From IMG/VR virus record IMGVR_UViG_3300000235_000002: DNA of 64,000 bases. One strand, given 5' to 3'. Shown here piece by piece: positions 4,387 through 51,209 of this stretch. A program made the position numbers and the translations under genes. This DNA comes from a virus. Position 1 is the stretch's first letter. The number at the start of each line of letters is the position of its first letter. Below the pieces are notes generated by a model. The model was not told the DNA's origin and did not search any database. It saw nothing but the letters and a program-made list of their open reading frames with translations.

Positions 4387-5814
4387 TTAAATTAAACCTG
4401 AATTTGCCCATTTTGGGGTAGTATCGTAAGCAAACTCCACAGCTGTTCTTGCTTGCGCTAAACCATTCAGCGCATAGAACATCGCATCCAAGCAATGATC
4501 ATTCTTCTTAATGATGATGCCGTTCTCATCTCTGGCGTATTGCCGAAACTCATTCACCGCATGCCGACAACCAACACCTTTTTCACTATGGAATATCTTG
4601 AATCTGTCCCCACGAACCCGTTCATAGATTTCATCAATCACCGCTTCTTTGGCATTGTTCGTTTTGTGAGCTTTGACTAGACGAAGCCCCGACTTAATCT
4701 GCAGAAAATCTAACGTCTTTTCTTTTGTGTGCATGTTTTCACCGGCACCTGCGGGATCAACCATGCCCGTACACCAGTCAGGTACCATCTGAAGGATATT
4801 GTTTGCATGTTCGGTCGGTGTCGCATTACTCAGCTTGTAATCTCGTACCACATAGACAATATCCGAATCACGGTCATGAGCAAGAAGTACACAACCCCAT
4901 GTCCCTCCTGAGGAGGCCGATGGATCAAGCCCGTAAACGCAAGCGAAATGCTTTGGAATCTCAAACGGTTCAACGAACAATTCCGATTCCATCATCGTGA
5001 AAACCTTGCCTTGGCCAAACACAGGCACGCCGTGTTCACGCGCTTCTAATTGCCATTTTGGAATGGATTTTCTAAGGTGATCGATCGTTTCCTGTTTTAA
5101 ATACGGATTGTCTTGCCAAGATGCAGTAATATAGAAACGGCCGTCCTTGACTTCACCTTCCGCACCGTTGTCCAGAAAGTGCGCAATCAAATCGTCCTTG
5201 CCTTTTTCTGGCCACATACTCGCCACCAGAAACGTCTTCTCCTTGTCAAACTCCGAGATCCGAACCAACGCTTCTTGATAGACACGAAAGTTCGGCAACT
5301 CATCCATATGGATAAAATCCGCCTTCACACCTTGCCAAGACGACTCACCTTGTTGAAAAGCCTTAAACTTGAGTTCTGACCTGCCACCGGACACATGGTT
5401 GATCCACACCGTATCCCAAGCTCCTGCCACGTTGGTGTGTGTTTTGTCGGCAAGGTAGCTTTGGTGCAATATCGGTGGCATCGTGCCGTCCAAATCACCT
5501 AAAAACATCTTTCGTTGAAGAATATCGCGCGTATCTTTGAGGCTCACGGAAGAAGAAATGGCATTGATCGGACGTGAAAAACGATACCCCTTCCACCAAG
5601 GCGGATAAACACCTGTGAGGTGAAATGCCAGTTCCATGCAAACGGCATTCGTCTTGCCTGTTCTATTGCCGCCAAGAAACAGACGTTCTTTTGCCAAAAG
5701 ACTGGCTTCATGAAATTGTGCTTGCTTCGGTGTCGGCTTGTAAAATAAAAAGCTTTTTTCCGCGAAAGCCGTCAACTGATCAACTGAAAAACCAAGATGG
5801 GAAACGCCGCTCAA
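4387..5814 (-). CDS. terL: Terminase large subunit
   Basis: Walker A GGNRTGKT, Walker B IHMDE, nuclease motifs GLDPS and DHCLDA; TTG start. Confidence 0.93.
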   Translation of the reverse strand: MSGVSHLGFSVDQLTAFAEKSFLFYKPTPKQAQFHEASLLAKERLFLGGNRTGKTNAVCMELAFHLTGVYPPWWKGYRFSRPINAISSSVSLKDTRDILQRKMFLGDLDGTMPPILHQSYLADKTHTNVAGAWDTVWINHVSGGRSELKFKAFQQGESSWQGVKADFIHMDELPNFRVYQEALVRISEFDKEKTFLVASMWPEKGKDDLIAHFLDNGAEGEVKDGRFYITASWQDNPYLKQETIDHLRKSIPKWQLEAREHGVPVFGQGKVFTMMESELFVEPFEIPKHFACVYGLDPSASSGGTWGCVLLAHDRDSDIVYVVRDYKLSNATPTEHANNILQMVPDWCTGMVDPAGAGENMHTKEKTLDFLQIKSGLRLVKAHKTNNAKEAVIDEIYERVRGDRFKIFHSEKGVGCRHAVNEFRQYARDENGIIIKKNDHCLDAMFYALNGLAQARTAVEFAYDTTPKWANSGLI

Positions 5815-6043
5815 ACAAACAGTCCTTTTTACTCAAAAAAGGGCGATGGAATTCGCTCCTTCATTCTTTGAATATACCAAAATTCTGCTGAAAAAACAAC
5901 GATTTGAACAAAAAAAAGAGAAAATCTGCAAGGTATAACAGATCTTCTCTTTTTTGGAATTTGTGAAAAGTTTTAAAAAATAATGAAATTATAACAAACA
6001 AATATCTACCAGAATTAACGCGAAAAGCCAAGCATGAAAATCA

Positions 6044-6919
6044 TCAGCTATTTTTCAGCAGCTCTTCAATCTTGTCCATTGACAAACCGGTAGCTTCAAC
6101 GATCACAGGAGACGCGACACCTTGATTCAACAGTGCCATTGCCACCTGCAATATGCCTTTTTCGATACCTTTTTCGATACCTTTTTCGATACCTTCATCA
6201 TACCGCTGATCCATCGACGCTTTGTATGATCCTGCATACTTCTCCGCCTGATCATAGGTTAACAGCTCTTCCTCATTCCAGGAGAAGCGGTTCAACTCTT
6301 GATACACACGCTCAATGATCTCATCAGAGCCGATAATCGACGCTAAATCCTCTTCCCTCGTCTCTTCCGCGTGCAAGAAGAAGTAGCTCCATTTTTCGAC
6401 CATGTTTGATAGATCGTCTATCCGCTTTTTGAACTTCGGCAATTCCAAAAATGTAAATGAAAAATCCTTCAAATCGTTGGACTGGGTCACTCTATCCAAA
6501 ATGATATGATCGGACTTATACGCCTCATTCTTCGGAAACATGATGAAGTCTGCTATCGCAATGAAGATGATCTCTTTCAAATCCGCATAAGCACCGCCGA
6601 TTTTCATCTGGGAACTATAGGCTTTGGCGGCATAATACTGCGCTCGTTTCTCAAAGCCCTTTTCCTTGGCAACCTGTAGCTCAACAATGTACTGATGACC
6701 GTGTTCATCCCGACACAACACATCAACGATACTCGTCTTCTGCGCCGCCGTTTCAGGATCTTGAACGGTTTTAAGAAACGTCACGTCCGTAATCGGGTGT
6801 CTCTCTCTGAACGTTACCATGTCATTCAAAAAGTGAATCAGAATATCTTTGTTTTTTTCAGTCCCAAAGATCTTGCGAAAACAAACGTCATTCTTTGGGT
6901 CAAGAAATTTAGACAACAT
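6044..6919 (-). CDS. Rpn-family recombination-promoting nuclease / PD-(D/E)XK putative transposase (track start 6961)
   Basis: LDPKNDVCFRKIFG N-terminus, IVDVLC...YIVELQ, KRAQYYAAKAY, C-terminal EKGI repeats. Confidence 0.9.
   Translation of the reverse strand: MLSKFLDPKNDVCFRKIFGTEKNKDILIHFLNDMVTFRERHPITDVTFLKTVQDPETAAQKTSIVDVLCRDEHGHQYIVELQVAKEKGFEKRAQYYAAKAYSSQMKIGGAYADLKEIIFIAIADFIMFPKNEAYKSDHIILDRVTQSNDLKDFSFTFLELPKFKKRIDDLSNMVEKWSYFFLHAEETREEDLASIIGSDEIIERVYQELNRFSWNEEELLTYDQAEKYAGSYKASMDQRYDEGIEKGIEKGIEKGILQVAMALLNQGVASPVIVEATGLSMDKIEELLKNS
6156..6195 (-). repeat. 12-bp tandem repeat (3 copies) encoding EKGI in Rpn
   Basis: cctttttcgata x3 on the plus strand. Confidence 0.85.
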
Positions 6920-7111
6920 GAAATTAACCTTTCTGCAATTGATTTTTCCAAACAATAGCATGAACGGATTCCAAGAAGAAAGACGATCCTGTTATCCACA
7001 GAATCTGTGAGTAAGTTTGTGAATACGTATAGAGTCGACATACGTAACTCCACCCGGTTCCGCCGGAATCAACGATTTGCTCAAGAAATAGGCAGATAAA
7101 GTTCTTAAATT

Positions 7112-7157
7112 AAAAAAAGCTGCTAATTCCGATGGTTCAGAATTAGCAGCTTTTTTT
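7112..7157. terminator. Bidirectional rho-independent terminator downstream of the OMP gene
   Basis: AAAAAAAGCTGCTAATTC-10 nt-GAATTAGCAGCTTTTTTT perfect inverted repeat with T-tracts on both strands. Confidence 0.85.
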
Positions 7158-7324
7158 ACTTACTAAAGTCTCTTCAATTTAACACAATCTAAGTCATTGT
7201 GCAAAAAGAATATTTTTATTTTGAAGCAATTGTCACGCAAAGAAACGGACTAGCTTTCAATGATTCTAATGATCTTTTTTTCATGATTGACTCCTGTTGT
7301 TTCATATTGACATTTAAATTCTTA

Positions 7325-8116
7325 TCACATTTTGGCTGAAATGCCAACAAGCAAACCTTTTTGTGAACCAAACGTCTTGTTGTGAGAAATGTATGGCTTC
7401 CCAAAAAGTGATACATCTTTTGTCAAATCGTAAGCCACTTTAAATGATGCTGATTTTGTATCCAATTTAAAAGATGCGTTCTTCGTGTTGCGGCTGTGTT
7501 CGTAATGAATCATCGGTGTCACGGAAAGAGGAGAACCGGAGGAAAGTTTCATAGCCGTACCTAAATCAAACCCTACTAACACATTGTCAAGCGGGTTTTT
7601 GCTAACAAAAGCATTGGCTAATACAGAAAAGCATGGATTCACTTTAAAGGCGTTATCCGAAAAAAGAGTCATAGAAAAGCCACCAAGGTCTATTTCTTCT
7701 TTTCCTGATACGTAACCTTTAGAGTTGATTATTCCTGCCCTAATACCTGTTACTGTTGACCAAACCTGACCGGCGTATTTTCCAAATACACCCACTTCTT
7801 GTTTATTAAAAGAAAAACGCTTGTCTCCAGATCTTTGGCTTTGAATTTTTTTTTCAAGATTCATTTTGTGAGAAAGTGAGAACCCAAAAGCATCGTGACC
7901 GATATATTCCAAATATACTTTTGGCATGTGATTCGTTTTGGTTTTTATACCGGATTGAGTGGGGTATTTGTTTTGTGACATCTCGTTAGATATTGTTGCT
8001 ACAAAGTTTCTGTGGTCATTTTTAGCTTCAATACCTTTGTTGATTTCTGCGTGATTATCAACAGTGGCAAAAGCAGTACAGGCCATCAAGGCTAAAAGTG
8101 TTGCTGTTTTAATCAA
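7325..8116 (-). CDS. Secreted, probable outer-membrane beta-barrel protein (263 aa)
   Basis: TTG start after GGAG RBS; signal peptide ending AFA; alternating hydrophobic beta-strand pattern; C-terminal LLVGISAKM strand. Confidence 0.6.
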   Translation of the reverse strand: MIKTATLLALMACTAFATVDNHAEINKGIEAKNDHRNFVATISNEMSQNKYPTQSGIKTKTNHMPKVYLEYIGHDAFGFSLSHKMNLEKKIQSQRSGDKRFSFNKQEVGVFGKYAGQVWSTVTGIRAGIINSKGYVSGKEEIDLGGFSMTLFSDNAFKVNPCFSVLANAFVSKNPLDNVLVGFDLGTAMKLSSGSPLSVTPMIHYEHSRNTKNASFKLDTKSASFKVAYDLTKDVSLFGKPYISHNKTFGSQKGLLVGISAKM

Positions 8117-8271
8117 TTTAATTTCTCCGTGTTGGATTGATGAAAAACCTATCTTATAAAATTATTCGAGAATTGTCTGTAACACTTAAGTCACAGTGAG
8201 AAAGTTTCTCTATCGTGTTACCTATATCAATATAAAAATATTTTTTTGATTGGATGGATGCCCCACCCCCC

Positions 8272-8826
8272 CTAGCCCCCCCTTTTCAAAACTCTGTGGA
8301 TGGTCATGTGAGAAACAGCATATTTATTAGCTAGTTGCGGTAATGAAAAATGTTCTTCTTCCCGTAACCGCTTTATGTCATTCTCCTGATCCGATGTCAG
8401 AATAGCCTTACGTCCAAAAGATACGCCTTTCTCAAGAGCCTTCTTGATGCCTTCCATCTGCCTTGACCTCCTTATATCATTCTCAAACTCTGCAAACGAT
8501 CCAATGATATTGAACATCAAGCGACCCTCTGAGGTGGTTGTATCTATTGACTGATCAAGGACTTTAAGCTGCGCCTGTTTCTTCTGGATTCTTTTGGAGA
8601 TGATCAATAAATCTTGCATGGAACGAGCGAGTCTATCTAATTTGGTGACCACAAGAACATCTCCTTCCCGTAGTGTTCGTAAAGCTGTTTCTAATTCATT
8701 CCTTTTTTGAGAAAGCGCGGAGATTTTTTCTTCGAAGATTTCATCACAACTTTCCTGTTGAAGTTTTTCTTTCTGGACTTCCAAGGATTGTCCGTAACTA
8801 CTAACACGTGCATAACCTATTTTCAT
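8272..8826 (-). CDS. Serine recombinase (resolvase/invertase family) with C-terminal HTH
   Basis: MKIGYARVSS catalytic motif, VTKLDRLARS, GVSFGRK arm, HTH tail. Confidence 0.95.
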   Translation of the reverse strand: MKIGYARVSSYGQSLEVQKEKLQQESCDEIFEEKISALSQKRNELETALRTLREGDVLVVTKLDRLARSMQDLLIISKRIQKKQAQLKVLDQSIDTTTSEGRLMFNIIGSFAEFENDIRRSRQMEGIKKALEKGVSFGRKAILTSDQENDIKRLREEEHFSLPQLANKYAVSHMTIHRVLKRGG

Positions 8827-10385: not shown

Positions 10386-11738
10386 ATGGGCATCTTGTCT
10401 TCTTTAAATAGAGAACAGAAAGAGGCTGTTGGTCTCTTGCAGATCGGTACTTTTTTAGAGTATTTTGACCTCATGCTATATGTCCACATGGCTGTGTTAC
10501 TCAATGAGCTTTTCTTCCCTAAAACCGATCCTCATACCGCCGCACTTCTTACCGCTTTTGCTTTTTGTTCAACATTTGTTTTTAGGCCTTTTGGCGCCCT
10601 AATTTTTGGATATATTGGAGATCAAATCGGGAGAAAAACTACGGTTATCATCACCACCATCATGATGTCTATTTCATGTGTCATTATGGCAAATTTGCCA
10701 ACATATGCTCAGATAGGAATATCTTCCGCTTGGATTGTCACAATATGTCGTGTGGCACAGGGGCTTTCTTCGATGGGGGAAGTTGTAGGGGCACAGATTT
10801 ACGTAACAGAAATAACAAAGCCGCCGTGTCAATATCCAGCGGTTTCTTTTATTAGCATTGCATCGGCTATAGGTTCTATTATGGCGCTTGGAGTGGCTTC
10901 ATTAGTGACTCATTTTGAGTTTAACTGGCGAATCGCTTTTTGGATTGGAGCAGGGATTGCAGTTGTAGGCTCAATGGCGCGGATGAAACTTCGTGAAACA
11001 CCAGAATTTGTAGATATGAAAAGGAAAAAACAAAAAGAGATAGAACAATATGAATCCAACGAAAAAGTCAAACTTTCAAAGTTTCAACGTCTCAAAAAAC
11101 AAGTTCAACAAGAAAAAATAAGCAAAAAAAATCTAGCTGCTTATTTTTTTATTAATTGTGGGTGGCCTTTATCTTTTTATCTTACTTATATGTACTTTAA
11201 TCCATTACTGAAAGAAAACTATTATTATTCTGCAGAAGATATTATCTTCCACAATTTTTTAGTATCCATTAGCGTTTTTATGTTTGATGTACTTTGGACA
11301 TTTCTGAGCTATAAAGTTCACCCCCTAAAAATACTAAAAGGAAGAGGTATGATACTTCTTATCTTTTTTTGTTTATTCCCTTTCTTAATTGTAAACACTA
11401 CCCACCATTTTCAGATTTTTGGGTTGCAAGCTTTTCTCTTAATCCTTTCTTTGGCTCAAATGCCTGCTGCTTCTGTTTTTATAAAATATTTTCCTGTTTT
11501 TAAGAGGTTTACAGCAACAAGTTTTACATATGCGGTTACGCGGGCTCTGATGTATATCCTCACTTCTTTTGGGCTTGTATATCTCACAGAAGCATTTGGA
11601 CACTATGGTCTTTGGTTAATTATGTTGCCTGTAACAATATTATTTTTATGGGGTGTAAATCATTTCATCAAGCTAGAAAAAGAAGCTGGTAATTTTCCTG
11701 AATCTTCTTCCTCAAAGAAAGTCTTATTAACGGGATAA
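10386..11738 (+). CDS. MFS transporter, ProP/MHS-like metabolite:H+ symporter
   Basis: GTFLEYFDLMLY, FRPFGALIFGYIGDQIGRK, LRETPEF motifs; about 12 hydrophobic segments. Confidence 0.93.
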   Translation: MGILSSLNREQKEAVGLLQIGTFLEYFDLMLYVHMAVLLNELFFPKTDPHTAALLTAFAFCSTFVFRPFGALIFGYIGDQIGRKTTVIITTIMMSISCVIMANLPTYAQIGISSAWIVTICRVAQGLSSMGEVVGAQIYVTEITKPPCQYPAVSFISIASAIGSIMALGVASLVTHFEFNWRIAFWIGAGIAVVGSMARMKLRETPEFVDMKRKKQKEIEQYESNEKVKLSKFQRLKKQVQQEKISKKNLAAYFFINCGWPLSFYLTYMYFNPLLKENYYYSAEDIIFHNFLVSISVFMFDVLWTFLSYKVHPLKILKGRGMILLIFFCLFPFLIVNTTHHFQIFGLQAFLLILSLAQMPAASVFIKYFPVFKRFTATSFTYAVTRALMYILTSFGLVYLTEAFGHYGLWLIMLPVTILFLWGVNHFIKLEKEAGNFPESSSSKKVLLTG

Positions 11739-19954: not shown

Positions 19955-20384
19955 TGTTTTAGAGATTAAGGCACACTATCAATTCTGGCGAGATCGGTAT
20001 GAACAAACGAAATCCGTGAAAGATTTAATCAACATGCAGAATCATTTGCAACAGTATTTGCGGCTCGTAAATGAACAGAAAGCCGACAAGGATTTTTTGA
20101 TAGATGAGGGAAATAGCCAATTAAAAAAACAACGAGAAGAGTCACTCAAACGAGAAGCGGCACAACGAAAATCAAGGCTCTCGGTTGCTTTGAAAATAGT
20201 CGAAGAACACATGAAAAATAGTGAAGGTCAACACAAAGCAATCACTATTTCTAAACAATACAGTCTTCTGTATAACGATGTGGCGAACAGTTTATACAAG
20301 CTGGAAAAGCTTGGTATGGTCAAAAAAACAAAGACTAAAGGCGTTCGAAATTACACTATTTCTTGGGAGAGATGCGATGATTAA
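19938..20384 (+). CDS. Hypothetical protein with C-terminal winged-HTH-like segment (track start 19905)
   Basis: GGAG RBS at 19927; VANSLYKLEKLGMVKK...RNYTI resembles a wHTH. Confidence 0.55.
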   Translation: MKKEPDVLEIKAHYQFWRDRYEQTKSVKDLINMQNHLQQYLRLVNEQKADKDFLIDEGNSQLKKQREESLKREAAQRKSRLSVALKIVEEHMKNSEGQHKAITISKQYSLLYNDVANSLYKLEKLGMVKKTKTKGVRNYTISWERCDD

Positions 20385-21337
20385 CCCACTTTTAGCTTTC
20401 TATAGACATCAGGTTTCCACTTTTCTTTGATCGCGGTTTGCAACATGGCTCTTGGGTTTTTAACCTGGCCTCTATCCATTTGAATGTTCACGGATTTTAA
20501 AGCATCGCTGACAGCGTCTTCACCGTTGTCGGTGATGAATCGTTTCGCAATCGCTCTGCTAAAGCCGTATTCAACCAATGAGTCAACTATGACTGATTCA
20601 GAACGGTATTCTTTTTGAAGTTGACGTACCTTTTCAGCGGTGCCTTCCGGTTGAATACGCTTCTTCTTGATCGTCCAGTCTAAGGCGACAACTTTCCGAG
20701 ATTCTTTGATTTCAACGTAATCAATTTCATACTCTGTTTTAGCGTTGATCTCGGTTTTTGCGCGATCTATAACTCTTGATTTAAGGTGAGCATAAAGTGT
20801 ATATTCGTCTTTTCGTATTCCACACCACGCGCGAATATCTTTAATACTGGTTTTTCTTTCTCCAATTGACTCATATTGAACTAGAAATTCAAGAATTCTC
20901 ATTGAATATGAACTATCTAACTTTAGATAGTTACCAAATTCCATGACCGTGAATTTCTCGTTAAGTTGAAGAAGGTAAGGCTTTAAGTCTGGATGAAATT
21001 TTAAATCGCAAATGCCCACTTTTGGATCCCACTCTGCAAAACAAAGCCATGCCATTTGCTTTGTTTTACCGGTCTCTTGATCTTCAATTTGAATCAGGCG
21101 AGTAATCAAAGACGCGGTTAATTTCTTCATTTCTCTGTATTGTGAATTTGGATCTAAGTTAACTTCTTGCGCAAATTCCTTAATGCTCACCCTATATTTT
21201 TTAAAATCAATATCATCTTTCCTTATTTTTTTTGAAAGCCACGCAACAAGTCTTTTCTCTTGAAAAGTTAGTCTATAGCTCGACTCAACTAAATAATTAC
21301 TTTGAACAACGATTTCCTTACCGATTGTTTTGATCAT
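20381..21337 (-). CDS. repB: Plasmid replication initiator, Rep_3 (RepB/RepA) family
   Basis: VVQSNYLVESSYRLTFQEKRL, LKFHPDLKPYLLQL, SSYSMRILE and VIDRAKTEIN motifs; iterons directly upstream. Confidence 0.93.
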   Translation of the reverse strand: MIKTIGKEIVVQSNYLVESSYRLTFQEKRLVAWLSKKIRKDDIDFKKYRVSIKEFAQEVNLDPNSQYREMKKLTASLITRLIQIEDQETGKTKQMAWLCFAEWDPKVGICDLKFHPDLKPYLLQLNEKFTVMEFGNYLKLDSSYSMRILEFLVQYESIGERKTSIKDIRAWCGIRKDEYTLYAHLKSRVIDRAKTEINAKTEYEIDYVEIKESRKVVALDWTIKKKRIQPEGTAEKVRQLQKEYRSESVIVDSLVEYGFSRAIAKRFITDNGEDAVSDALKSVNIQMDRGQVKNPRAMLQTAIKEKWKPDVYRKLKVG

Positions 21338-21375: not shown

Positions 21376-21592
21376 TTATCCACAAAGTTATTAAATCACA
21401 AGTGATAGTTCACAGCGTAAATGTGATAGTTCACAGCGTAAATGTGATAGTTCACAGCGTAAATGTGATAGTTCACCCAGAAAAACACAATAAATACAAC
21501 GCATTAAAACCGCCTAAAATACTTAAAACTTAGTAAAAGTATAAAACTAAAGCAAAAAGGAAAAACAGAAAGTGAAGATTTTCTGTGGATAA
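21376..21592. promoter_or_regulatory. Iteron-type plasmid origin flanked by two inverted DnaA boxes
   Basis: TTATCCACA 21376-21384, iterons, AT-rich tract, TGTGGATAA 21584-21592. Confidence 0.9.
21402..21476 (+). repeat. Iterons: GTGATAGTTCACAGCGTAAAT x3 plus a 12-bp partial copy
   Basis: Perfect 21-bp tandem repeat with no spacers. Confidence 0.95.
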
Positions 21593-24443: not shown

Positions 24444-24611
24444 ATGGACTGGAAAACAATCTTGGGAACAATAATTAACTGTATATCGATAGTGTTACTT
24501 TTATTGGCATTCATTCAACTGTACTTTATTGAAAGAAGAAACTAATCACATTGGCGAGAAATGTTTCGGTACATGAACGATCGTTTGGATAGAAGCGTGG
24601 AGAAGAAATGA
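24444..24611 (+). pseudogene. Degenerate tandem paralogue of the 85-aa gene with an in-frame TAA
   Basis: MDWKTILG...ERRN*SHWREMFRYMNDRLD versus MDWTQTI...EKNEAHWREMFMYMNDRID. Confidence 0.65.
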
Positions 24612-29766: not shown

Positions 29767-31122
29767 CTAAATATCGTACACAATCATGTCAAATCCGCCA
29801 TAAAGGTAATTGTTGTTAGAGTCTCTTACCACAATGTCTACCTGTGTCGTGCTTTGTGCGTCGTTGCTAGCTGAAATTGCGTAAACACTTACAGATGTAT
29901 CATTAGGTGTCAAAATGACAATAGCGTTTGCAGAAGAAGCTGCAGTTGTGAACACTACCCTAAATATACGTTTGTTATTAGGAAGTTCTACTTGCGTAAC
30001 GCTAGTTATGTTGAGGGACTTTAGTATAGTCGCATTTGAGGCCACCGAAAGTATAGCAAACGGTGCGATTTGACCTGCATTTTGCAGTTTTGTTTTTGGA
30101 ATGGTACTGTTGGCAATTAAAGCACCTGTGATGGTACCATCAAGAATTTGAACATTTGTGACGGTATTGTTGGCAAGTTTAGCACCTGTGATGGAAAGGT
30201 TCGCATATAAAGCAGTAGTGATGGTACCATCGGCAATTTGAGCATTTGTGACGGTATTGTTGGCAAGTTTAGCACCTGTGATAGAAAGGTTCGCATATAA
30301 AGCAGTAGTGATGGTACCGTCAGCAATTTGAACATTTGTGACGGTATTGTTGGCAAGTTTAGCACCTGTGATGGAACCGTTCGCATATAGAGCCGTTGTG
30401 ATGGTACCGTCAGCAATTTGAACATTTGTGACGGTATTATTTAAAAGCTTAGCTCCGACAACGGATCCATCTATGAGTTTTGCACCGGAAACAGAAGTGC
30501 TGATGAGTTTTGTACCGTCAATGCTATTGTCGACAATCTTAGATCCTGTAATCGTTAAATTAGCAATTTGACTCCCTGTGATCGTTGCGTCAGCTACTTT
30601 AACTCCTGTAACTGCTTTATCCTGTAGATGGCTAGTGATGATGCTGTTATTGGAAATTTTGTTAGTTGTGACGGCGTTATTTGCTATTTTTGATGTTGTA
30701 ACGGCACCGTCGTATATTTTCGTCCCCCAAACCGCATTGTTTTCTATGTGCTGCGTTTGGATTGCTTGCGGTTGAATCTTAGCCGATGTCACTACCGCAT
30801 CAATGATGTTGTTTGTTCCAACAGAGGCAACGCCAAGGTTGACCTGATTAATCGGTGTCCAACTGATATTGCCGTTGCCGTCTGTCGTGAGGAGAAAATT
30901 CGCATTCAATGGATCATTTGCACCCGGAAGCGCACCGACAACGATGCCGTTGATTTCAGCAGATTGCGTATTTAGAAGATCAATGATCCGATTCATATCG
31001 CCGTCTAGCTGTTGAGCTGTCGGCGGAAACTGTCCGAGGTTCTCATATCGATTGTAGTTAGGTAAGATCTGCTCAGGTTGATACGGAATAGCCGGTCTGC
31101 TATTATTTGTTGGAAGTGGCAT
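29767..31122 (-). CDS. Tail fibre protein with decapeptide repeats (451 aa)
   Basis: Many [ST][IV]TxxK[IL]A-type 10-aa repeats; N-terminal anchor; directly after the nozzle gene. Confidence 0.75.
   Translation of the reverse strand: MPLPTNNSRPAIPYQPEQILPNYNRYENLGQFPPTAQQLDGDMNRIIDLLNTQSAEINGIVVGALPGANDPLNANFLLTTDGNGNISWTPINQVNLGVASVGTNNIIDAVVTSAKIQPQAIQTQHIENNAVWGTKIYDGAVTTSKIANNAVTTNKISNNSIITSHLQDKAVTGVKVADATITGSQIANLTITGSKIVDNSIDGTKLISTSVSGAKLIDGSVVGAKLLNNTVTNVQIADGTITTALYANGSITGAKLANNTVTNVQIADGTITTALYANLSITGAKLANNTVTNAQIADGTITTALYANLSITGAKLANNTVTNVQILDGTITGALIANSTIPKTKLQNAGQIAPFAILSVASNATILKSLNITSVTQVELPNNKRIFRVVFTTAASSANAIVILTPNDTSVSVYAISASNDAQSTTQVDIVVRDSNNNYLYGGFDMIVYDI
30131..30440 (-). 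repeat. 90-bp tandem repeat (~3.4 copies) encoding NNTVTNVQIADGTITTALYANxSITGAKLA
   Basis: agcacctgtgat recurs at 30181, 30271, 30361; catttgtgacggtatt recurs every 90 bp. Confidence 0.88.
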
Positions 31123-38761: not shown

Positions 38762-38986
38762 TTATGCGTTTCTTTGAGTTGTTGGAATTTGTGCTTGAAT
38801 GGCTTGAATGTCAGTGGTGATGTCATTCAATACAGAAGATAAGTTCGCACATAGTTGTTGATATTGTGGTGTAATCTCGCCGCTATAATTGAATACTTGG
38901 GTGCCGTATTGTTGGCAGAATTGAGAATCGACATTTAATGCTGACAAATCTTTTATAGCTTGTCGATTCGGAGTAATAGTTGCCAT
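38762..38986 (-). CDS. Small hypothetical protein (74 aa)
   Basis: ORF between a promoter-like sequence and the portal gene. Confidence 0.5.
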   Translation of the reverse strand: MATITPNRQAIKDLSALNVDSQFCQQYGTQVFNYSGEITPQYQQLCANLSSVLNDITTDIQAIQAQIPTTQRNA

Positions 38987-39102: not shown

Positions 39103-39594
39103 TTAAGTAATATTCGTTAATTGAAAGTTATTAACCACTTGGACTAAATAGAGTTTCCCAATTTCACCGGAAATTTTGAAAATGAGACAATCAACGGCAT
39201 TAGCTGTACTCGATAGAGGCATCAATGTTGATGTATTCCCTGCCCTGTAAATATTAGATATATTTAGAGATCTGTTGCCATTAGCATCTTGCTTTGCAAA
39301 TAACGTCAACGTTGATGGTCCGGCTGTATTCCAGCTAATATTCGTGATGACGCAATTTCCGGAAAGCGTTAGAAAAGCAACATTGCCAAGTGTTGCATTC
39401 CAACTCATAGAACTCGTAAAATTAAGTGTCTGGTATTTATCTAATCTTTGATCAGTGGTGTTTTCTACCCATGATTCAGATGCGAGGGGATACCATGTAG
39501 ATCCATCCGAATATTCAACTTTGCCAAGTGTCAATGTCAGTGGTTTGATAGAAGACGAGGAGACACCATTTTTTCGTGTTTTTTTACGCGCCAT
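39103..39594 (-). CDS. Tail-fibre tip / receptor-binding-like module (163 aa)
   Basis: N-terminal GKVEYSDGSTWYPLASE half-motif; C-terminal beta domain (LTLSGN...QDANGNRSL...STANAVD) resembling phage fibre ends. Confidence 0.62.
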   Translation of the reverse strand: MARKKTRKNGVSSSSIKPLTLTLGKVEYSDGSTWYPLASESWVENTTDQRLDKYQTLNFTSSMSWNATLGNVAFLTLSGNCVITNISWNTAGPSTLTLFAKQDANGNRSLNISNIYRAGNTSTLMPLSSTANAVDCLIFKISGEIGKLYLVQVVNNFQLTNIT

Positions 39595-40384
39595 TATTGT
39601 ATCGAATCATCCCTGCTACAAGTAAGGTTGGCCTCTGTGCCGTTGTTCCACCCGGCAGTGTTGTCGAAGCGATTCCGGGAAGAATAGGATTTGTTGCAAG
39701 ACTGACCGTTGACGCACTGCCACTCGTCGTCACGGTAATCTGATTTGTTGTTCCTGAAACCGACTCAATACCGCTTTTAGCAAGCTTCACAAATGTAATG
39801 CTGCTCGTACCCACAGTCGTGACAGTGGCTGTCTGCATCCAAGCCGTAACGCCATTCACCGTTCCTGTTGCAACAAAGATTGTATCACCAACAATCATCT
39901 GAGCAGCAGAATCAAAATCAGTCGCACGTGTTAAAACCCAAGGGGCGCTTGCTGTTCCGGCATTAGTTACCGTATAGATCCCATTTTGAAAAGCTGTGCT
40001 TTGATCTTTGATCAGCACACGCGCGCCTACAGCAGGTGTTATACCATCAATCGTAAAAACCTGATTAGCTGTACTTATCAGTGTTGCCCCAACGCCGGAT
40101 GTACCATAAAAATAAGTAGCAAATAGACTCGTTGTCGTCGCTGATATACAGGGTTCATTACTAATTTTGGAAATAGCATTAACAACATAACCTTCTGTTG
40201 CTAAATAATACCAGTTTGTCCCATCCGTGAATTCCGGTTTTCCTGAGGGTGTTGGAGGGATAGCCTTGAGACCTAATTTAGTCATAGCTCGAATGCCTTC
40301 AGGAGTGGGAACAAGAGGAATTCGGGTGTCTTTTCCCGAAGAATCGTCATCATAAATGTCATCTGTTTTGGAAAGGTAACTCAT
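39584..40384 (-). CDS. Copy 2: fibre middle module
   Basis: Same translation as 113-913. Confidence 0.72.
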   Translation of the reverse strand: MSYLSKTDDIYDDDSSGKDTRIPLVPTPEGIRAMTKLGLKAIPPTPSGKPEFTDGTNWYYLATEGYVVNAISKISNEPCISATTTSLFATYFYGTSGVGATLISTANQVFTIDGITPAVGARVLIKDQSTAFQNGIYTVTNAGTASAPWVLTRATDFDSAAQMIVGDTIFVATGTVNGVTAWMQTATVTTVGTSSITFVKLAKSGIESVSGTTNQITVTTSGSASTVSLATNPILPGIASTTLPGGTTAQRPTLLVAGMIRYNNGA

Positions 40385-40583
40385 TTTTTTTCCTTTAAAA
40401 ATGGCGGAATTCATTATTAATAAATTACCATAAAACAGCAAAAAAGAAAATTCAAAAATACCAATTTATACAATAATTTCTGTAAAAAAACTGTTTATTT
40501 GCAAAATGTTAGATCAAAAAATTTTCAAGACACTGTTTTGAAAAATCGTGTCTAACTACTCTCCAAAAAAAGAACATAATTCG

Positions 40584-42443
40584 TCAAGCAGGAGATGTGT
40601 TATATCTTATCATTCCGGAAATCGGTACAGAAGGACGCTGAGATGATGTTCCTTTAGGGATAATCATAGATTCATTGCCTGGAAGTACCGCATTATTCTG
40701 AAAATATGTCGTGATGGGATTCAACAATCCTCCTGATCCATAAACGGCTCCTTGCAAGGTTATTCCTGTATTGAGGAGAGTATTTAGGCTATTTTGCGCA
40801 CTCGTCGCACTATTGGATGCGTTTGTTGCAGAGGTTTGAGATTGGGAAGCTGAAGAGGCTGCATCAGATGCTGAAGAAGAGGCACTAGAAGATGAGGAAG
40901 AAGCACTAAGGGCTGATGCCGCAGCAGCAACAGCTGATACGCCTGCACCTAAAGCTGATGCTGCCGCTGCCGCTGCTGATCCACTTGCAGCAGCAGCAGC
41001 CCCTGTGGCCTCTGCTGCTGCACCTGTAGCTTCTTCTGCTGCTGCTGTAGCTTCACTTGCGGATGCTGCTGCCTCCTCAGCTGACGCCGAAGCTTCATTT
41101 TTGAATGCTTCCGTTTCTGCCTTGATTTGCTCTAAAGTCTCTTTGGTTGCATAATCTTGATCGCGAATCGCCACTTCAATGCTACCATCTGCCGCCGCTT
41201 TCAAGATTTTTGGGGCAACTCCAACCAGTTGATTTAATGCCTGCGCATTGGGAAGACTATTATGGGACTGTTTTAAAATGTACGTCGCATCCACGGAAGG
41301 CATATTTGTGAAGGCAAGCTGTCGGTCTGTTGAAAGAGGAACATTACCAATATCCGTTAAGACTTGTCCTGTGGTGCTCACTGTATCGGGCATCACCCAA
41401 TTGATATTCATCGCCACTGAAGCAGGTGCTTTTAAGCTGACATAGTTCGTATAGCGATGAGCAGGATTATAATCATAAAAAATAAACTGACGCCCTTCCA
41501 CTGTATTCAGAGATAAAACTTGCTGATCTGCTCTTATACTCCCTCCCGCTCCTCCCTGAACTGTAGCTAGTAGATCACGACACGTCACGGTATTGATTCC
41601 TGAAATATTATCGTGATCAGCATCAATATTGATAAGTTGAAGTTTCGATCTTGCAATCACCTTATCCCGTAAAACGATAGGAATAGTTCCATCCGCATAT
41701 CCCTCATTGACCAGATCAAGATAATCTGTGCCAGGGGTCGCGTATTGGATGGTTTTTCCTGTTTTCTTCAGCATGCCATCCTGAAGATTAATCAAAAATT
41801 GTGATTTTGGCCATGTCGTTTGCACCAAGGCACTTCCCATGATAAATTCGCCAAGCAAAAAACGAGCATTGAGTAAAGCAATATCTGCTTCCACACCTAA
41901 TAAAGCTGTTGATTCTTCAGGCCTATTGCTATCAGTTCCATGCCAAATTTTACCCCCAGAAATGGTTATAGGAGTAAGTGGGTCAATAGGGTTAGGAATG
42001 GTAATCGATGCTGTTCCTAAAGAAGGCAGATTAGATAAATTTATAGTTGCTTGAGGAGTTGCTATATTGTTGCCATTCCCCACAAAAAGATTTCCTGATG
42101 GAAGATAAGTGGATAAATAATCTGTTCCTGGAATAGCAATTTGAATCAGGCCACCTATATTCTTCATCATTCCGTCGTCAAGATCACTTAGAGCCTGGGC
42201 ATTAGGAAAAGTAGAAACAGGCGTACTGATCACCACAGGAGCTTCAGAAATAGATTCAACCTGTTGCTGAAGAGATCTTACATCAATCGTTAAGTCTATT
42301 AGCTTGAAAGACGGCGTTGGTCGGTTATGCTTGTCACCGATCCAAACGTAACCACGCTCCAAATCTGGTAGTTGCAAATGTGATGCCAGAATGCCGGTGA
42401 CAGGTGAGACGAACGGATCGGTATAGCCAGGAATATATTTCAT
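40584..42443 (-). CDS. Copy 2: fibre proximal module
   Basis: Same as 1113-2972. Confidence 0.65.
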   Translation of the reverse strand: MKYIPGYTDPFVSPVTGILASHLQLPDLERGYVWIGDKHNRPTPSFKLIDLTIDVRSLQQQVESISEAPVVISTPVSTFPNAQALSDLDDGMMKNIGGLIQIAIPGTDYLSTYLPSGNLFVGNGNNIATPQATINLSNLPSLGTASITIPNPIDPLTPITISGGKIWHGTDSNRPEESTALLGVEADIALLNARFLLGEFIMGSALVQTTWPKSQFLINLQDGMLKKTGKTIQYATPGTDYLDLVNEGYADGTIPIVLRDKVIARSKLQLINIDADHDNISGINTVTCRDLLATVQGGAGGSIRADQQVLSLNTVEGRQFIFYDYNPAHRYTNYVSLKAPASVAMNINWVMPDTVSTTGQVLTDIGNVPLSTDRQLAFTNMPSVDATYILKQSHNSLPNAQALNQLVGVAPKILKAAADGSIEVAIRDQDYATKETLEQIKAETEAFKNEASASAEEAAASASEATAAAEEATGAAAEATGAAAAASGSAAAAAASALGAGVSAVAAAASALSASSSSSSASSSASDAASSASQSQTSATNASNSATSAQNSLNTLLNTGITLQGAVYGSGGLLNPITTYFQNNAVLPGNESMIIPKGTSSQRPSVPISGMIRYNTSPA

Positions 42444-43576
42444 TATTCCCTCGCATTAAAATGGGCAATAAATTTCTGAATGTTCAACAAATCAGCATCA
42501 TATTGCGTCATCGCATATTGCTCTAGGTTCGCTAAATTTGCAGCAGAGTAGTTGTCTAAACTCGAATCTTGTCCCGGTAAAAATTGATACTGAAAGCGAT
42601 TGAAAAAGATATCGTCATACACATCCGTTGCTTCAAATTCCATCACCTTCGCATTCAGTTCTTGTGGCCCGGGAATGAAAACGTTATCCATCAGATAGAA
42701 AATGTAGTCGACGTTATACGGTGCAATGCTATTCAGATTTTGCGTCAAAAACATCACCTGTTCTTTTTTATCCGGATATTTTTTTAAAAGCTTTTGTCTG
42801 ATTTTTTCGATTTCTTTTTTGGTTTCTTGTTCCAGCTCGGAATCAACGGTTTTCAATTTCAACGTCGTTTCCGGTATGAAGTCATTGTGCGCAACACCTG
42901 TACCGACGGAAAGAATGCAAAAACGTGCAACTCCGGGAAACATCTTCTTAGCTACCGAATAGGCAAGCGTTACCGGATTGTTGACATAGACACCGCCGTC
43001 AATCATCGTATGGCTATTAACCGATGCAGGCGGAAAGTAAAGCGGCGCAGCACTTGTTGCAAGTCCAACATCAACGACGGATCGACCGGCACCGCTCAAG
43101 AACGGTTCAAGACCTGAAATGTTGGAAAATATAGCGGCTTCATCTTCATGCGTATCCCACGCAGGAATGATCACTTTTGTCAAAAGGGAGGAAAGAGGAA
43201 GTGTTTCACCAAAAACGTCTACTAAAGCTGTTCTGAGTGGAGCTTGAGCGTAAAAAGTTGATGGGTAGGTTGGTAATCCCATGATGACACTGAACTTGTA
43301 GACGGATAGCGGCAAGATAGAATTGTAGGCAAAAATACTAGAACCTTTACTTGCAAAAAACTGCCTCATCTCTTCAGGCGTTTTCCCATAAGCATATCCT
43401 AACGCCTGGATGCCACCAATACTTGTACCGGTAATAATATCAAATTCATCGTACAAGCGATTTGGCGCAATGCCTGCGTCAAGGCAAAATCGCTTCAGAA
43501 AAGTAGCGGAAAAATATCCTCTCATACCGCCACCGTCCAAAGACAAGATCTTCACCGTTTTTGAAGATGAATCCAT
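42443..43576 (-). CDS. Copy 2: patatin-like phospholipase
   Basis: Same as 2972-4105. Confidence 0.93.
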   Translation of the reverse strand: MDSSSKTVKILSLDGGGMRGYFSATFLKRFCLDAGIAPNRLYDEFDIITGTSIGGIQALGYAYGKTPEEMRQFFASKGSSIFAYNSILPLSVYKFSVIMGLPTYPSTFYAQAPLRTALVDVFGETLPLSSLLTKVIIPAWDTHEDEAAIFSNISGLEPFLSGAGRSVVDVGLATSAAPLYFPPASVNSHTMIDGGVYVNNPVTLAYSVAKKMFPGVARFCILSVGTGVAHNDFIPETTLKLKTVDSELEQETKKEIEKIRQKLLKKYPDKKEQVMFLTQNLNSIAPYNVDYIFYLMDNVFIPGPQELNAKVMEFEATDVYDDIFFNRFQYQFLPGQDSSLDNYSAANLANLEQYAMTQYDADLLNIQKFIAHFNARE

Positions 43577-45514: not shown

Positions 45515-46390
45515 TCAGCTATTTTTCAGCAGCTCTTCAATCTTGTCCATTGACAAACCGGTAGCTTCAACGATCACAGGAGACGCGACACCTTGATTCA
45601 ACAGTGCCATTGCCACCTGCAATATGCCTTTTTCGATACCTTTTTCGATACCTTTTTCGATACCTTCATCATACCGCTGATCCATCGACGCTTTGTATGA
45701 TCCTGCATACTTCTCCGCCTGATCATAGGTTAACAGCTCTTCCTCATTCCAGGAGAAGCGGTTCAACTCTTGATACACACGCTCAATGATCTCATCAGAG
45801 CCGATAATCGACGCTAAATCCTCTTCCCTCGTCTCTTCCGCGTGCAAGAAGAAGTAGCTCCATTTTTCGACCATGTTTGATAGATCGTCTATCCGCTTTT
45901 TGAACTTCGGCAATTCCAAAAATGTAAATGAAAAATCCTTCAAATCGTTGGACTGGGTCACTCTATCCAAAATGATATGATCGGACTTATACGCCTCATT
46001 CTTCGGAAACATGATGAAGTCTGCTATCGCAATGAAGATGATCTCTTTCAAATCCGCATAAGCACCGCCGATTTTCATCTGGGAACTATAGGCTTTGGCG
46101 GCATAATACTGCGCTCGTTTCTCAAAGCCCTTTTCCTTGGCAACCTGTAGCTCAACAATGTACTGATGACCGTGTTCATCCCGACACAACACATCAACGA
46201 TACTCGTCTTCTGCGCCGCCGTTTCAGGATCTTGAACGGTTTTAAGAAACGTCACGTCCGTAATCGGGTGTCTCTCTCTGAACGTTACCATGTCATTCAA
46301 AAAGTGAATCAGAATATCTTTGTTTTTTTCAGTCCCAAAGATCTTGCGAAAACAAACGTCATTCTTTGGGTCAAGAAATTTAGACAACAT
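45515..46390 (-). CDS. Copy 2: Rpn-family nuclease
   Basis: Same as 6044-6919. Confidence 0.9.
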   Translation of the reverse strand: MLSKFLDPKNDVCFRKIFGTEKNKDILIHFLNDMVTFRERHPITDVTFLKTVQDPETAAQKTSIVDVLCRDEHGHQYIVELQVAKEKGFEKRAQYYAAKAYSSQMKIGGAYADLKEIIFIAIADFIMFPKNEAYKSDHIILDRVTQSNDLKDFSFTFLELPKFKKRIDDLSNMVEKWSYFFLHAEETREEDLASIIGSDEIIERVYQELNRFSWNEEELLTYDQAEKYAGSYKASMDQRYDEGIEKGIEKGIEKGILQVAMALLNQGVASPVIVEATGLSMDKIEELLKNS

Positions 46391-46582
46391 GAAATTAACC
46401 TTTCTGCAATTGATTTTTCCAAACAATAGCATGAACGGATTCCAAGAAGAAAGACGATCCTGTTATCCACAGAATCTGTGAGTAAGTTTGTGAATACGTA
46501 TAGAGTCGACATACGTAACTCCACCCGGTTCCGCCGGAATCAACGATTTGCTCAAGAAATAGGCAGATAAAGTTCTTAAATT

Positions 46583-49856: not shown

Positions 49857-51209
49857 ATGGGCATCTTGTCTTCTTTAAATAGAGAACAGAAAGAGGCTGT
49901 TGGTCTCTTGCAGATCGGTACTTTTTTAGAGTATTTTGACCTCATGCTATATGTCCACATGGCTGTGTTACTCAATGAGCTTTTCTTCCCTAAAACCGAT
50001 CCTCATACCGCCGCACTTCTTACCGCTTTTGCTTTTTGTTCAACATTTGTTTTTAGGCCTTTTGGCGCCCTAATTTTTGGATATATTGGAGATCAAATCG
50101 GGAGAAAAACTACGGTTATCATCACCACCATCATGATGTCTATTTCATGTGTCATTATGGCAAATTTGCCAACATATGCTCAGATAGGAATATCTTCCGC
50201 TTGGATTGTCACAATATGTCGTGTGGCACAGGGGCTTTCTTCGATGGGGGAAGTTGTAGGGGCACAGATTTACGTAACAGAAATAACAAAGCCGCCGTGT
50301 CAATATCCAGCGGTTTCTTTTATTAGCATTGCATCGGCTATAGGTTCTATTATGGCGCTTGGAGTGGCTTCATTAGTGACTCATTTTGAGTTTAACTGGC
50401 GAATCGCTTTTTGGATTGGAGCAGGGATTGCAGTTGTAGGCTCAATGGCGCGGATGAAACTTCGTGAAACACCAGAATTTGTAGATATGAAAAGGAAAAA
50501 ACAAAAAGAGATAGAACAATATGAATCCAACGAAAAAGTCAAACTTTCAAAGTTTCAACGTCTCAAAAAACAAGTTCAACAAGAAAAAATAAGCAAAAAA
50601 AATCTAGCTGCTTATTTTTTTATTAATTGTGGGTGGCCTTTATCTTTTTATCTTACTTATATGTACTTTAATCCATTACTGAAAGAAAACTATTATTATT
50701 CTGCAGAAGATATTATCTTCCACAATTTTTTAGTATCCATTAGCGTTTTTATGTTTGATGTACTTTGGACATTTCTGAGCTATAAAGTTCACCCCCTAAA
50801 AATACTAAAAGGAAGAGGTATGATACTTCTTATCTTTTTTTGTTTATTCCCTTTCTTAATTGTAAACACTACCCACCATTTTCAGATTTTTGGGTTGCAA
50901 GCTTTTCTCTTAATCCTTTCTTTGGCTCAAATGCCTGCTGCTTCTGTTTTTATAAAATATTTTCCTGTTTTTAAGAGGTTTACAGCAACAAGTTTTACAT
51001 ATGCGGTTACGCGGGCTCTGATGTATATCCTCACTTCTTTTGGGCTTGTATATCTCACAGAAGCATTTGGACACTATGGTCTTTGGTTAATTATGTTGCC
51101 TGTAACAATATTATTTTTATGGGGTGTAAATCATTTCATCAAGCTAGAAAAAGAAGCTGGTAATTTTCCTGAATCTTCTTCCTCAAAGAAAGTCTTATTA
51201 ACGGGATAA
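49857..51209 (+). CDS. Copy 2: MFS transporter
   Basis: Same as 10386-11738. Confidence 0.93.
   Translation: MGILSSLNREQKEAVGLLQIGTFLEYFDLMLYVHMAVLLNELFFPKTDPHTAALLTAFAFCSTFVFRPFGALIFGYIGDQIGRKTTVIITTIMMSISCVIMANLPTYAQIGISSAWIVTICRVAQGLSSMGEVVGAQIYVTEITKPPCQYPAVSFISIASAIGSIMALGVASLVTHFEFNWRIAFWIGAGIAVVGSMARMKLRETPEFVDMKRKKQKEIEQYESNEKVKLSKFQRLKKQVQQEKISKKNLAAYFFINCGWPLSFYLTYMYFNPLLKENYYYSAEDIIFHNFLVSISVFMFDVLWTFLSYKVHPLKILKGRGMILLIFFCLFPFLIVNTTHHFQIFGLQAFLLILSLAQMPAASVFIKYFPVFKRFTATSFTYAVTRALMYILTSFGLVYLTEAFGHYGLWLIMLPVTILFLWGVNHFIKLEKEAGNFPESSSSKKVLLTG

Follow-up and report, generated by a model that had tools for sequence, protein, structure and literature searches.

The question raised by this locus is whether fibre proteins translated from separate genes can be joined end to end by one small domain whose coding sequence is cut at the gene boundaries. 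The locus lies in the virus record IMGVR_UViG_3300000235_000002, and the window, i.e., the whole stretch of DNA that was analysed, is 64,000 nucleotides (nt) long. By k-mer self-comparison it is a circular genome of 39,471 bp written 1.6 times (exact self-match at offset 39,471), and all features before position 24,529 reappear later in it. Three consecutive minus-strand open reading frames (ORFs) of 619, 266 and 163 amino acids (aa), called in the initial annotation, were confirmed at 40584-42443 (gene A), 39584-40384 (gene B) and 39103-39594 (gene C), between the patatin and portal genes. The first-copy coordinates given at that time were also correct, with the genes recurring minus 39,471 (1113-2972 for A and 113-913 for B). 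The architecture of these genes is real, conserved and widespread. From sequence, structural models and comparative genomics, all in silico, a plug-and-socket reading is best supported: each of A, B and C is probably translated on its own and contributes a trimeric piece to a single host-recognition fibre, in which a split beta-prism unit links them head to tail. None of the checks proposed in the initial annotation, run or approximated here, refuted this reading.

The fibre unit and its division between genes

The intact unit is about 45 aa long (LPxGTTAQRP..GMIRYNT..ExYxGxxW) and is contiguous in hundreds of other phage proteins. According to the initial annotation, the two halves usually run on within one polypeptide, and this proved to be true: tblastn and DNA-pattern scans gave many phage proteins with contiguous halves. 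In these proteins, LPxGTTAQRP..GMIRYNT is followed by 4-6 residues and then by ExYxGxxW, with an E-to-W spacing of 7. A unit profile, A3, was built from 54 contiguous units of other phages, and its invariant positions are P, G, R, G, R, N, E and W.

Both gene boundaries of the window cut this unit. The C-terminus of A reads ...GMIRYNTSPA and that of B reads ...GMIRYNNGA, so that the stop codons stand 3-4 residues past IRYN, and the second part of the unit is encoded in the next gene. The first part (C-half) occupies residues 584-619 of A (40587..40694, minus strand, as are all features of the three genes; stop 4 residues past IRYN) and residues 232-266 of B (39587..39691; stop 3 residues past IRYN). 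The A3 profile, as a hidden Markov model (HMM), matched these two C-termini at E 2.8e-13 and 2.4e-12, respectively, and nothing else in the genome. The second part (N-half) occupies residues 48-67 of B (40184..40243), where the ExxxGxxW hairpin and the following residues align with A3 columns 35-55, and residues 24-43 of C (39466..39525), the top genome-wide match of a second-half profile, also supported by alignment. Residues 48-60 of B are GKPEFTDGTNWYY and residues 24-36 of C are GKVEYSDGSTWYP. On recounting, 17 of the first 32 positions were identical between the two C-terminal half-motifs and 11 of 20 between the two N-terminal ones, in agreement with the initial annotation, and the head-to-tail pattern described there stands: A is without an N-half and C without a C-half. 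When the whole genome was translated in all six frames (45.5 k residues), the IRYN-type pattern was found solely at the ends of A and B, and E[FYW]x[DNTS]GxxW solely near the starts of B and C, each exactly twice.

The halves tile the profile. With hhalign, the C-halves aligned to A3 columns 3-36 (E 1.6e-18) and the N-halves to columns 35-55 in the right register (E 0.0027; probability 11%, with only 21 columns aligned), and the two column ranges abut exactly. By HMMER alone, the N-halves gave E 3-15 within the genome. The E-to-W spacing in the N-halves of B and C is 7, the same as in the contiguous units, and both keep the invariant E, G and W.

An artificial fusion of the two halves had been expected to match one continuous domain over its full length, and the fusions did restore such a match, with gains of 13 to 15 bits. 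The C-terminus of A alone scored 46.2 bits over profile positions 3-34, and its fusion to B from K49 scored 59.3 bits over positions 3-55. The C-terminus of B alone scored 43.0 bits over positions 8-33, and its fusion to C from G24 scored 57.9 bits (+15) over positions 8-53. Sixty shuffled or random controls showed essentially no gain (mean 45.5 bits, standard deviation 0.8, maximum 48.3, median end at 34-35), while natural contiguous units scored 59-90 bits on the same profile. Joining the last residue of A to K49 of B yields a canonical six-residue turn, so that the break resembles a nicked hairpin loop.

The A-B pair was also modelled as a complex of three chains of A545-619 with three chains of B1-80 using ESMFold2. 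The interface score ipSAE was 0.72, against 0.00 for the best control. The predicted interface comprised A residues 595, 603-604 and 607-618 and B residues 47-58 and 60, i.e., the two halves. In the calibration set, from which this job differs, 51 of 78 solved complexes and 2 of 108 mismatched pairs attained this ipSAE value. The model speaks for compatibility of the halves, not for binding, and may recall the contiguous fold.

An AlphaFold2 (AF2) model computed on the unit alignment had a predicted local distance difference test (pLDDT) value of 90 and formed a three-stranded meander with strands at 29-32 (IRYN), 37-41 (xLEFY) and 46-48 (Wxx). From these strand limits, the stops of A and B fall in the first turn (33-36), between strands one and two. 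Foldseek searches with the modelled unit gave CBA120 TSP3 and TSP4-N first (TMq 0.53-0.61, probability 0.84 up to 1.0), then Mtd (TMq 0.49, E 0.2, root-mean-square deviation 2.1 over 37 columns), followed by the HylP fibre and the trimerisation domains of collagen XV/XVIII; the E-values are weak because the unit model has only 58 residues. The likeness to the Mtd N-terminal beta-prism, noted in the initial annotation, was therefore retained for the predicted kind of fold, behind TSP3/TSP4-N, and dropped as membership of the Pfam family Mtd_N (PF18454), to which neither A, B and C nor the contiguous units gave a match even at E 10. The unit has no Pfam family, a sub-threshold DUF7360 match being the sole signal. 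Matches to kelch-repeat structures in the PDB (designed SAKe proteins) were rejected as homologues, being a hairpin-level likeness (YN...vE.Y...W) summed over six repeats.

The intact unit consists of the loop LPxGTTAQRP, the strand IRYN, a turn, the strand xExY, a second turn and the strand Wxx, and is a common joint in long single-chain fibres. With the gene cut in the first turn, the upstream protein ends with the loop and the first strand, and the downstream protein begins with a two-strand hairpin. In the proposed mechanism, three upstream tails and three downstream heads would co-fold into one prism, so that the joint would need both partners. The order of the proteins would be set by two joint flavours, in which ...RYNT-x-P.. 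pairs with KPEFTDGTNWYY and ...RYNNG-x pairs with K-x-EY-x-DG..WYP. Cassettes such as stalk, middle knob and tip could be exchanged or added, since modules of different kinds flank a joint whose sequence is conserved.

Junctions and cassettes in the relatives

The same split, with a variable number of modules, had been looked for as a feature of homologous loci. It was found at every testable junction: a scripted census gave 23 distinct cut C-halves, of which 22 were followed by a gene with the N-half and the remaining one was truncated by the contig end. The module number and the protein sizes vary across these junctions (A 357-651 aa, B 226-367 aa and C 163-776 aa). In the close relatives from IMG/VR and metagenomes (L007, L008 and L139-L145), both cuts are kept and B is 74-85% identical, with A bodies of 357, 372, 403 and 619 aa and C tips of 163, 454, 580, 681 and 776 aa. 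Distant loci have the same synteny and the same cuts, and one of them is a prophage in the complete genome of Candidatus Megaira polyxenophila. Altogether, the same two cuts occur in at least 12 independently assembled contigs and one complete bacterial genome. A scan of genome contigs with B found nothing.

The B-type cassette family comprises 652 clusters at E ≤1e-5. Among the best 120 of the 652, all 120 have the N-half in the first ~60 residues and a stop 3-4 residues past R-x-N. Within 53 family members, E51, D54 and G55 of the B N-half are invariant and G48, K49 and W58 are nearly invariant. The cassettes also vary in composition. A B cassette with a duplicated central domain occurs in L167, and L169 has four split junctions, which make two three-protein chains, 155->159->197 aa and 185->251->572 aa (L169:3711-5356 and 5368-8489). 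The first proteins of these chains (155 and 185 aa) have N-termini that look alike by eye, which would suggest that both chains dock on one 363-aa anchor protein. Two further proteins, P0129 and P0266, carry a bare N-half at the start and complete internal units with similar-looking second halves. At L165:6136-7981, A is frameshifted and the cut C-half lies in another frame. The near-twin of this locus, L166, is intact, and the frameshift in L165 reflects either an error of assembly or the decay of this copy.

Searches with the C-half profile against 1.84 billion representatives gave 4,285 proteins at E ≤0.001. The best 150 of these are mostly giant multi-unit fibres with up to 15 units each, some longer than 5,000 aa, and no cut ends were found in this set, where giant multi-unit proteins dominate. 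Among 380 units in the best-matching giant fibres, the median spacing was 229 residues and 372 units were seemingly contiguous. A DNA-pattern survey of IMG/VR with AGMIRYN gave no split unit among the 93 in the matches listed, a sample which did not contain the split clade; 7 of these 93 proteins end right after a complete unit. Fibre proteins ending just past a complete unit (...IEGYDGANWRQIIQP-stop) are L013-L015, L017 and L118 from IMG/VR, and gp49 of Shigella phage B2 (PDB 9D83, chain D). Given these terminal units, the intact unit may also serve as a terminal docking platform.

A broader reading is that the split unit is a general connector code, a self-assembling 3+3 clasp that would fold only when tail meets head and of which two or more mutually orthogonal flavours would exist. 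Across the lineage (at least 650 cassette clusters), freely exchangeable and separately encoded cassettes would then be assembled into fibres that vary in length and branching, and the giant fibres that hold up to 15 units in a single chain would represent this design in covalent form. We offer this tentatively, as something slightly short of an even chance.

Alternative readings and known systems

Several points weigh against a trans-folded joint between A, B and C. The support is computational throughout, and the leaders of 47 aa in B and 23 aa in C are without an assigned role. The N-half is short and statistically weak on its own, both by HMMER and by hhalign as given above. The complex was scored by a language-model folder that uses no alignments, at a pLDDT of only 55-64 and in a job that differs from its calibration set, and the modelling covers the A-B junction only. 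Non-cognate fusions gain too, by 8.8 bits for A+C and 7.4 bits for B+B, and with such gains of 7-9 bits the pairing specificity is not established by the fusion test.

The weak stand-alone N-half is what one would also see if the conserved gene ends were recombination linkers or chain caps, with A, B and C attaching through other surfaces and the N-half likeness being incidental. Terminal complete units without a split do exist (the 7 of 93 among the matches listed, and B2 gp49), and conserved junctions would favour homologous recombination as well. We consider this explanation unlikely, as linkers leave the exact register and tiling unexplained: 22 of 22 junctions keep register and position exactly and the cut is always 3-4 residues past R-x-N. 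Furthermore, the fusion gains lie far above the controls, the predicted interface falls on the halves, and the N-terminal half in P0129 and P0266 is a paralogue of the second halves of the internal units in the same proteins. If the joints do form in trans, they could still be promiscuous, with B onto B or C taken by A, giving fibres of variable length instead of a fixed A-B-C order. B has both halves, the non-cognate fusions gain in silico as mentioned, and A and B of L168 both end ...NTSL. However, the two joint flavours are conserved in the sub-clade of the window and the cognate fusions gain more (13-15 bits), which makes promiscuity rather improbable; it would in any case be a variant of the plug-and-socket reading and no denial of it.

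The remaining explanations place the unit in one chain. The stop of B and the start of C overlap by 11 nt (ATGGCGCGTAA, 39584..39594), and this overlap is kept as ATGGNNCNTAA in the close relatives (gap of -11 nt), without a clear Shine-Dalgarno sequence before C. A +1 frameshift or a bypass could fuse B and C there during translation, and read-through might do the same for A and B, in which case the two parts of the unit would meet in cis around an inserted loop. Conservation does not extend to the A-runs on either side, which differ or are absent in L007 and L145, and no slippery run is conserved. C has an ATG in all relatives, and in the wider family C starts 1-29 nt past the B stop (gaps of 1, 2, 6, 19 and 29 nt) without an overlap. 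Ordinary termination-reinitiation coupling would account for such an overlap. At the A-B boundary, where a non-coding, AT-rich spacer of the window (40385..40583, read from the sequence) separates the genes, the two reading frames differ, the spacer of the relatives measures 11-800 nt and often follows double stops, and two opposite-strand genes occupy it in L143 and L144 (L143:729-1458; L144:1294-2023). A and B are thus translated separately, and an intron, an intein and read-through are ruled out at this boundary on these grounds. Translational fusion is therefore impossible at A-B and unsupported at B-C, where ordinary coupling fits better, and as a whole we regard it as very improbable. 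The conservation refutes, for practical purposes, the idea that one long fibre gene is interrupted by assembly errors or by recent pseudogenising mutations. A single-gene fibre does occupy the same slot in MAnkyphage_25.80, and L165 does have a frameshifted A, but both cuts recur in the independent contigs and the complete bacterial genome counted above, the cassettes form a family of 652 clusters, every downstream gene carries a start codon of its own, frames differ and spacer lengths vary.

The plug-and-socket joint has partial counterparts in known systems. The T4 long tail fibre consists of gp34, gp35, gp36 and gp37 joined end to end into one fibre. To our knowledge, no shared domain is cut at gene boundaries in the T4 fibre, and no sequence relation of A, B or C to it was found here. 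The CBA120 TSP4 anchor (PDB 7REJ/7RFO/7RFV) and the TSP3 N-terminus (6NW9, 5W6F) are trimeric prisms of the beta-prism II kind, located at the attachment end of the tailspike, and gave the best Foldseek matches to the modelled unit. Past residue 42, each TSP4 subunit has a three-stranded antiparallel sheet, and the three sheets form the beta-prism II (PMC8825819). In the AF2 model, the unit likewise shows a three-stranded antiparallel sheet per chain with the RYN...E.Y...W hairpin. TSP4 residues 54-78 carry VRYN...EFEGY...W and match the unit profile marginally (E 0.014-0.067), with the LPxGTTAQRP part unaligned. Unlike A-B-C, the TSP3/TSP4 sheet is made by one chain, and no split has been described there. 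The N-terminal prism of BPP-1 Mtd (PDB 1YU0; Mtd_N, PF18454) is also trimeric and stands at the N-terminus of a receptor-binding protein, and an Atlas cluster of 164-aa proteins joins Mtd_N to a tip domain of the kind seen in C; the Mtd prism, unlike the joint proposed here, lies in a single chain.

Two co-purifying products, gp48 and gp49, form the tailspike of Shigella phage B2 (PDB 9D83) and correspond to one gene, gp82, in the related phage Moo19; how gp48 and gp49 meet is not described in that paper (PMC11654681). B2 gp49 (410 aa) ends with a unit of this family at 370-408, which is complete and not a half. In KP32-type Klebsiella podophages, a branching domain of the receptor-binding protein RBP1 and a conserved N-terminal docking peptide of RBP2 make modules exchangeable (PMC13352976, PMC6872550). 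That peptide docks on a complete T4 gp10-like domain, giving branching and not a serial chain, and is not half of one fold. In podophage A1002, fibre dimers form an augmented beta-sheet with the dock domain of the rope protein (PMC13730344). In A1002, as in the donor-strand complementation of chaperone-usher pili, a fold is completed by the strand or strands of a neighbour, as proposed here. These unrelated proteins are not trimeric prisms, whereas here a domain that is normally single-chain would be divided one strand versus two.

Multi-protein fibres and docking peptides are thus already known. The literature searched gave no description of a small trimerisation fold that gene boundaries divide and that acts in series as a joint, and text searches for the motif or the concept gave nothing. 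If the plug-and-socket reading is true, stalks and tips could be swapped without touching the joint, over the range of A and C sizes that relatives carry on the same junctions, and there would be an annotation rule for which neighbouring hypothetical genes form one fibre. A very common fibre motif without a Pfam family would gain a role as an inter-module joint, and a compact, natural heterohexameric clasp would be at hand for protein assembly. The predictions would be directly testable, i.e., the key residues, the binding pairs and the halves being unfolded alone.

The three fibre proteins and their genome

Gene A (40584..42443) encodes the putative proximal fibre protein of 619 aa. Its residues 1-246 (41706..42443) form the N-terminal virion-anchor region, assigned by a BLASTP match to the N-terminus of the MAnkyphage_25.80 fibre (E 5e-7). 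MAnkyphage_25.80 has one 1520-aa protein annotated as 'tail Fiber' in the same patatin-to-portal slot, with the anchor of A aligned from residue 1, and A, B and C therefore occupy the place of one fibre gene. This protein was also considered as a fused 'Rosetta stone' with contiguous units, which was dropped, as it is without any unit and shows only a single fibre in the slot. Residues ~437-545 of A (40809..41135, read from the translation) are an Ala/Ser-rich, low-complexity stalk, probably a coiled coil, with a 21-nt tandem repeat inside (1531-1597 of the first copy). PHROG tail-fibre matches to A are weak and confined to the Ala/Ser-rich part (residues 410-557). An inverted repeat with a T-run is visible after A, yet was not called as a terminator by a consensus scan, and no claim is made. 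The genes in the A-B spacer of L143 and L144 encode a 133-aa predicted membrane protein and a 111-aa protein with CxxC...CxxC, which may be a moron or defence pair.

Gene B (39584..40384) encodes the putative middle cassette, 266 aa from the ATG or 285 aa from an upstream TTG. Residues 1-47 (40244..40384) are a leader, delimited by alignment and by a pLDDT below 50 in the AF2 model; conservation within the sub-clade covers residues 21-47, the first ~20 are variable, and the leader is missing from most of the B family. The short unstructured leader described before the N-half in the initial annotation thus holds in this sub-clade and fails in most relatives, where the N-half begins at residue 2-11 of the downstream protein. 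Residues ~76-205 (39770..40159) form a globular central domain (tblastn, PHROG; AF2 pLDDT 82-95). By tblastn, this domain is common to fibre proteins of Pelagibacter, Limnohabitans and Roseobacter phages and cyanophages, and PHROG matches were obtained too; no solved fold in the PDB was matched (best probability 0.30). In the AF2 monomer of B, the N-terminal 75 residues had pLDDT below 62, and the C-half had pLDDT 60-78 with the IRYN strand not formed. This poor order of the lone halves is as expected if they need a partner.

Gene C (39103..39594) encodes the putative distal tip protein of 163 aa, in which a basic 23-aa leader (39526-39594) precedes the second N-half. The tip domain, residues 44-163 (39106..39465), was delimited by predicted-structure likeness. 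It resembles phage tail-fibre C-terminal domains of a PF26209-like kind, with a feature score of 0.95 and TM 0.77 against ESM Atlas clusters carrying Phage_phiTE_241_C (PF26209); searches with Pfam HMMs gave no match to this family at E 10. A Peptidase_S74 chaperone domain was not found by Pfam in the 163-aa C, and the longer C proteins of relatives gave weak or faint matches to it. A likeness of the tip to the C-terminus of the Roseobacter phage CRP-603 fibre was dropped (BLASTP E 2).

The late genes run in the order TerL, a small protein, patatin, A, B, C, a 74-aa protein and portal, and this order from TerL to portal is kept in all relatives found. The patatin-like phospholipase gene (42443-43576, minus strand) is immediately upstream of A, its stop overlapping the start of A, and the patatin-fibre pairing is kept in all relatives, including the Megaira prophage and MAnkyphage_25.80. 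Directly downstream of C, the 74-aa protein (38762-38986, minus strand) is kept in L007 and L008, two close relatives in which it likewise begins with MATITPNR; a role in fibre assembly or as a neck protein is conceivable.

The genome is that of a small, phage-plasmid-like phage. It encodes a morphogenesis set of a P22-type portal, large terminase, capsid protein and patatin, together with a Rep3 plasmid initiator, a resolvase, a primase, a DNA methylase and a transporter of the major facilitator superfamily (MFS). The closest portal is that of the Megaira polyxenophila phage MAnkyphage_25.80. Plasmid-type functions are the Rep3 initiator (20381-21337, minus strand), adjoining iterons (21402-21476; 3.6 perfect copies of 21 bp) and a serine resolvase (8272-8826, minus strand), and the element looks like a phage-plasmid; L008 also has a ParA-like ATPase. 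The 450-aa MFS/sugar-transporter-family gene (10386-11738, plus strand, = 49857-51209) is unusual phage cargo, perhaps tied to an intracellular host. A Rpn/PD-(D/E)XK-type transposase-like gene (45515-46432, minus strand; PHROG 3300, E 3e-44) adjoins the terminase region. A second, separate fibre or spike gene lies in the tail module (29767-31122; 451 aa, tail-fibre-like), and contains a tandem repeat at 30101-30438 with a unit of 90 nt (30 aa) in 3.5 copies at 93% identity.

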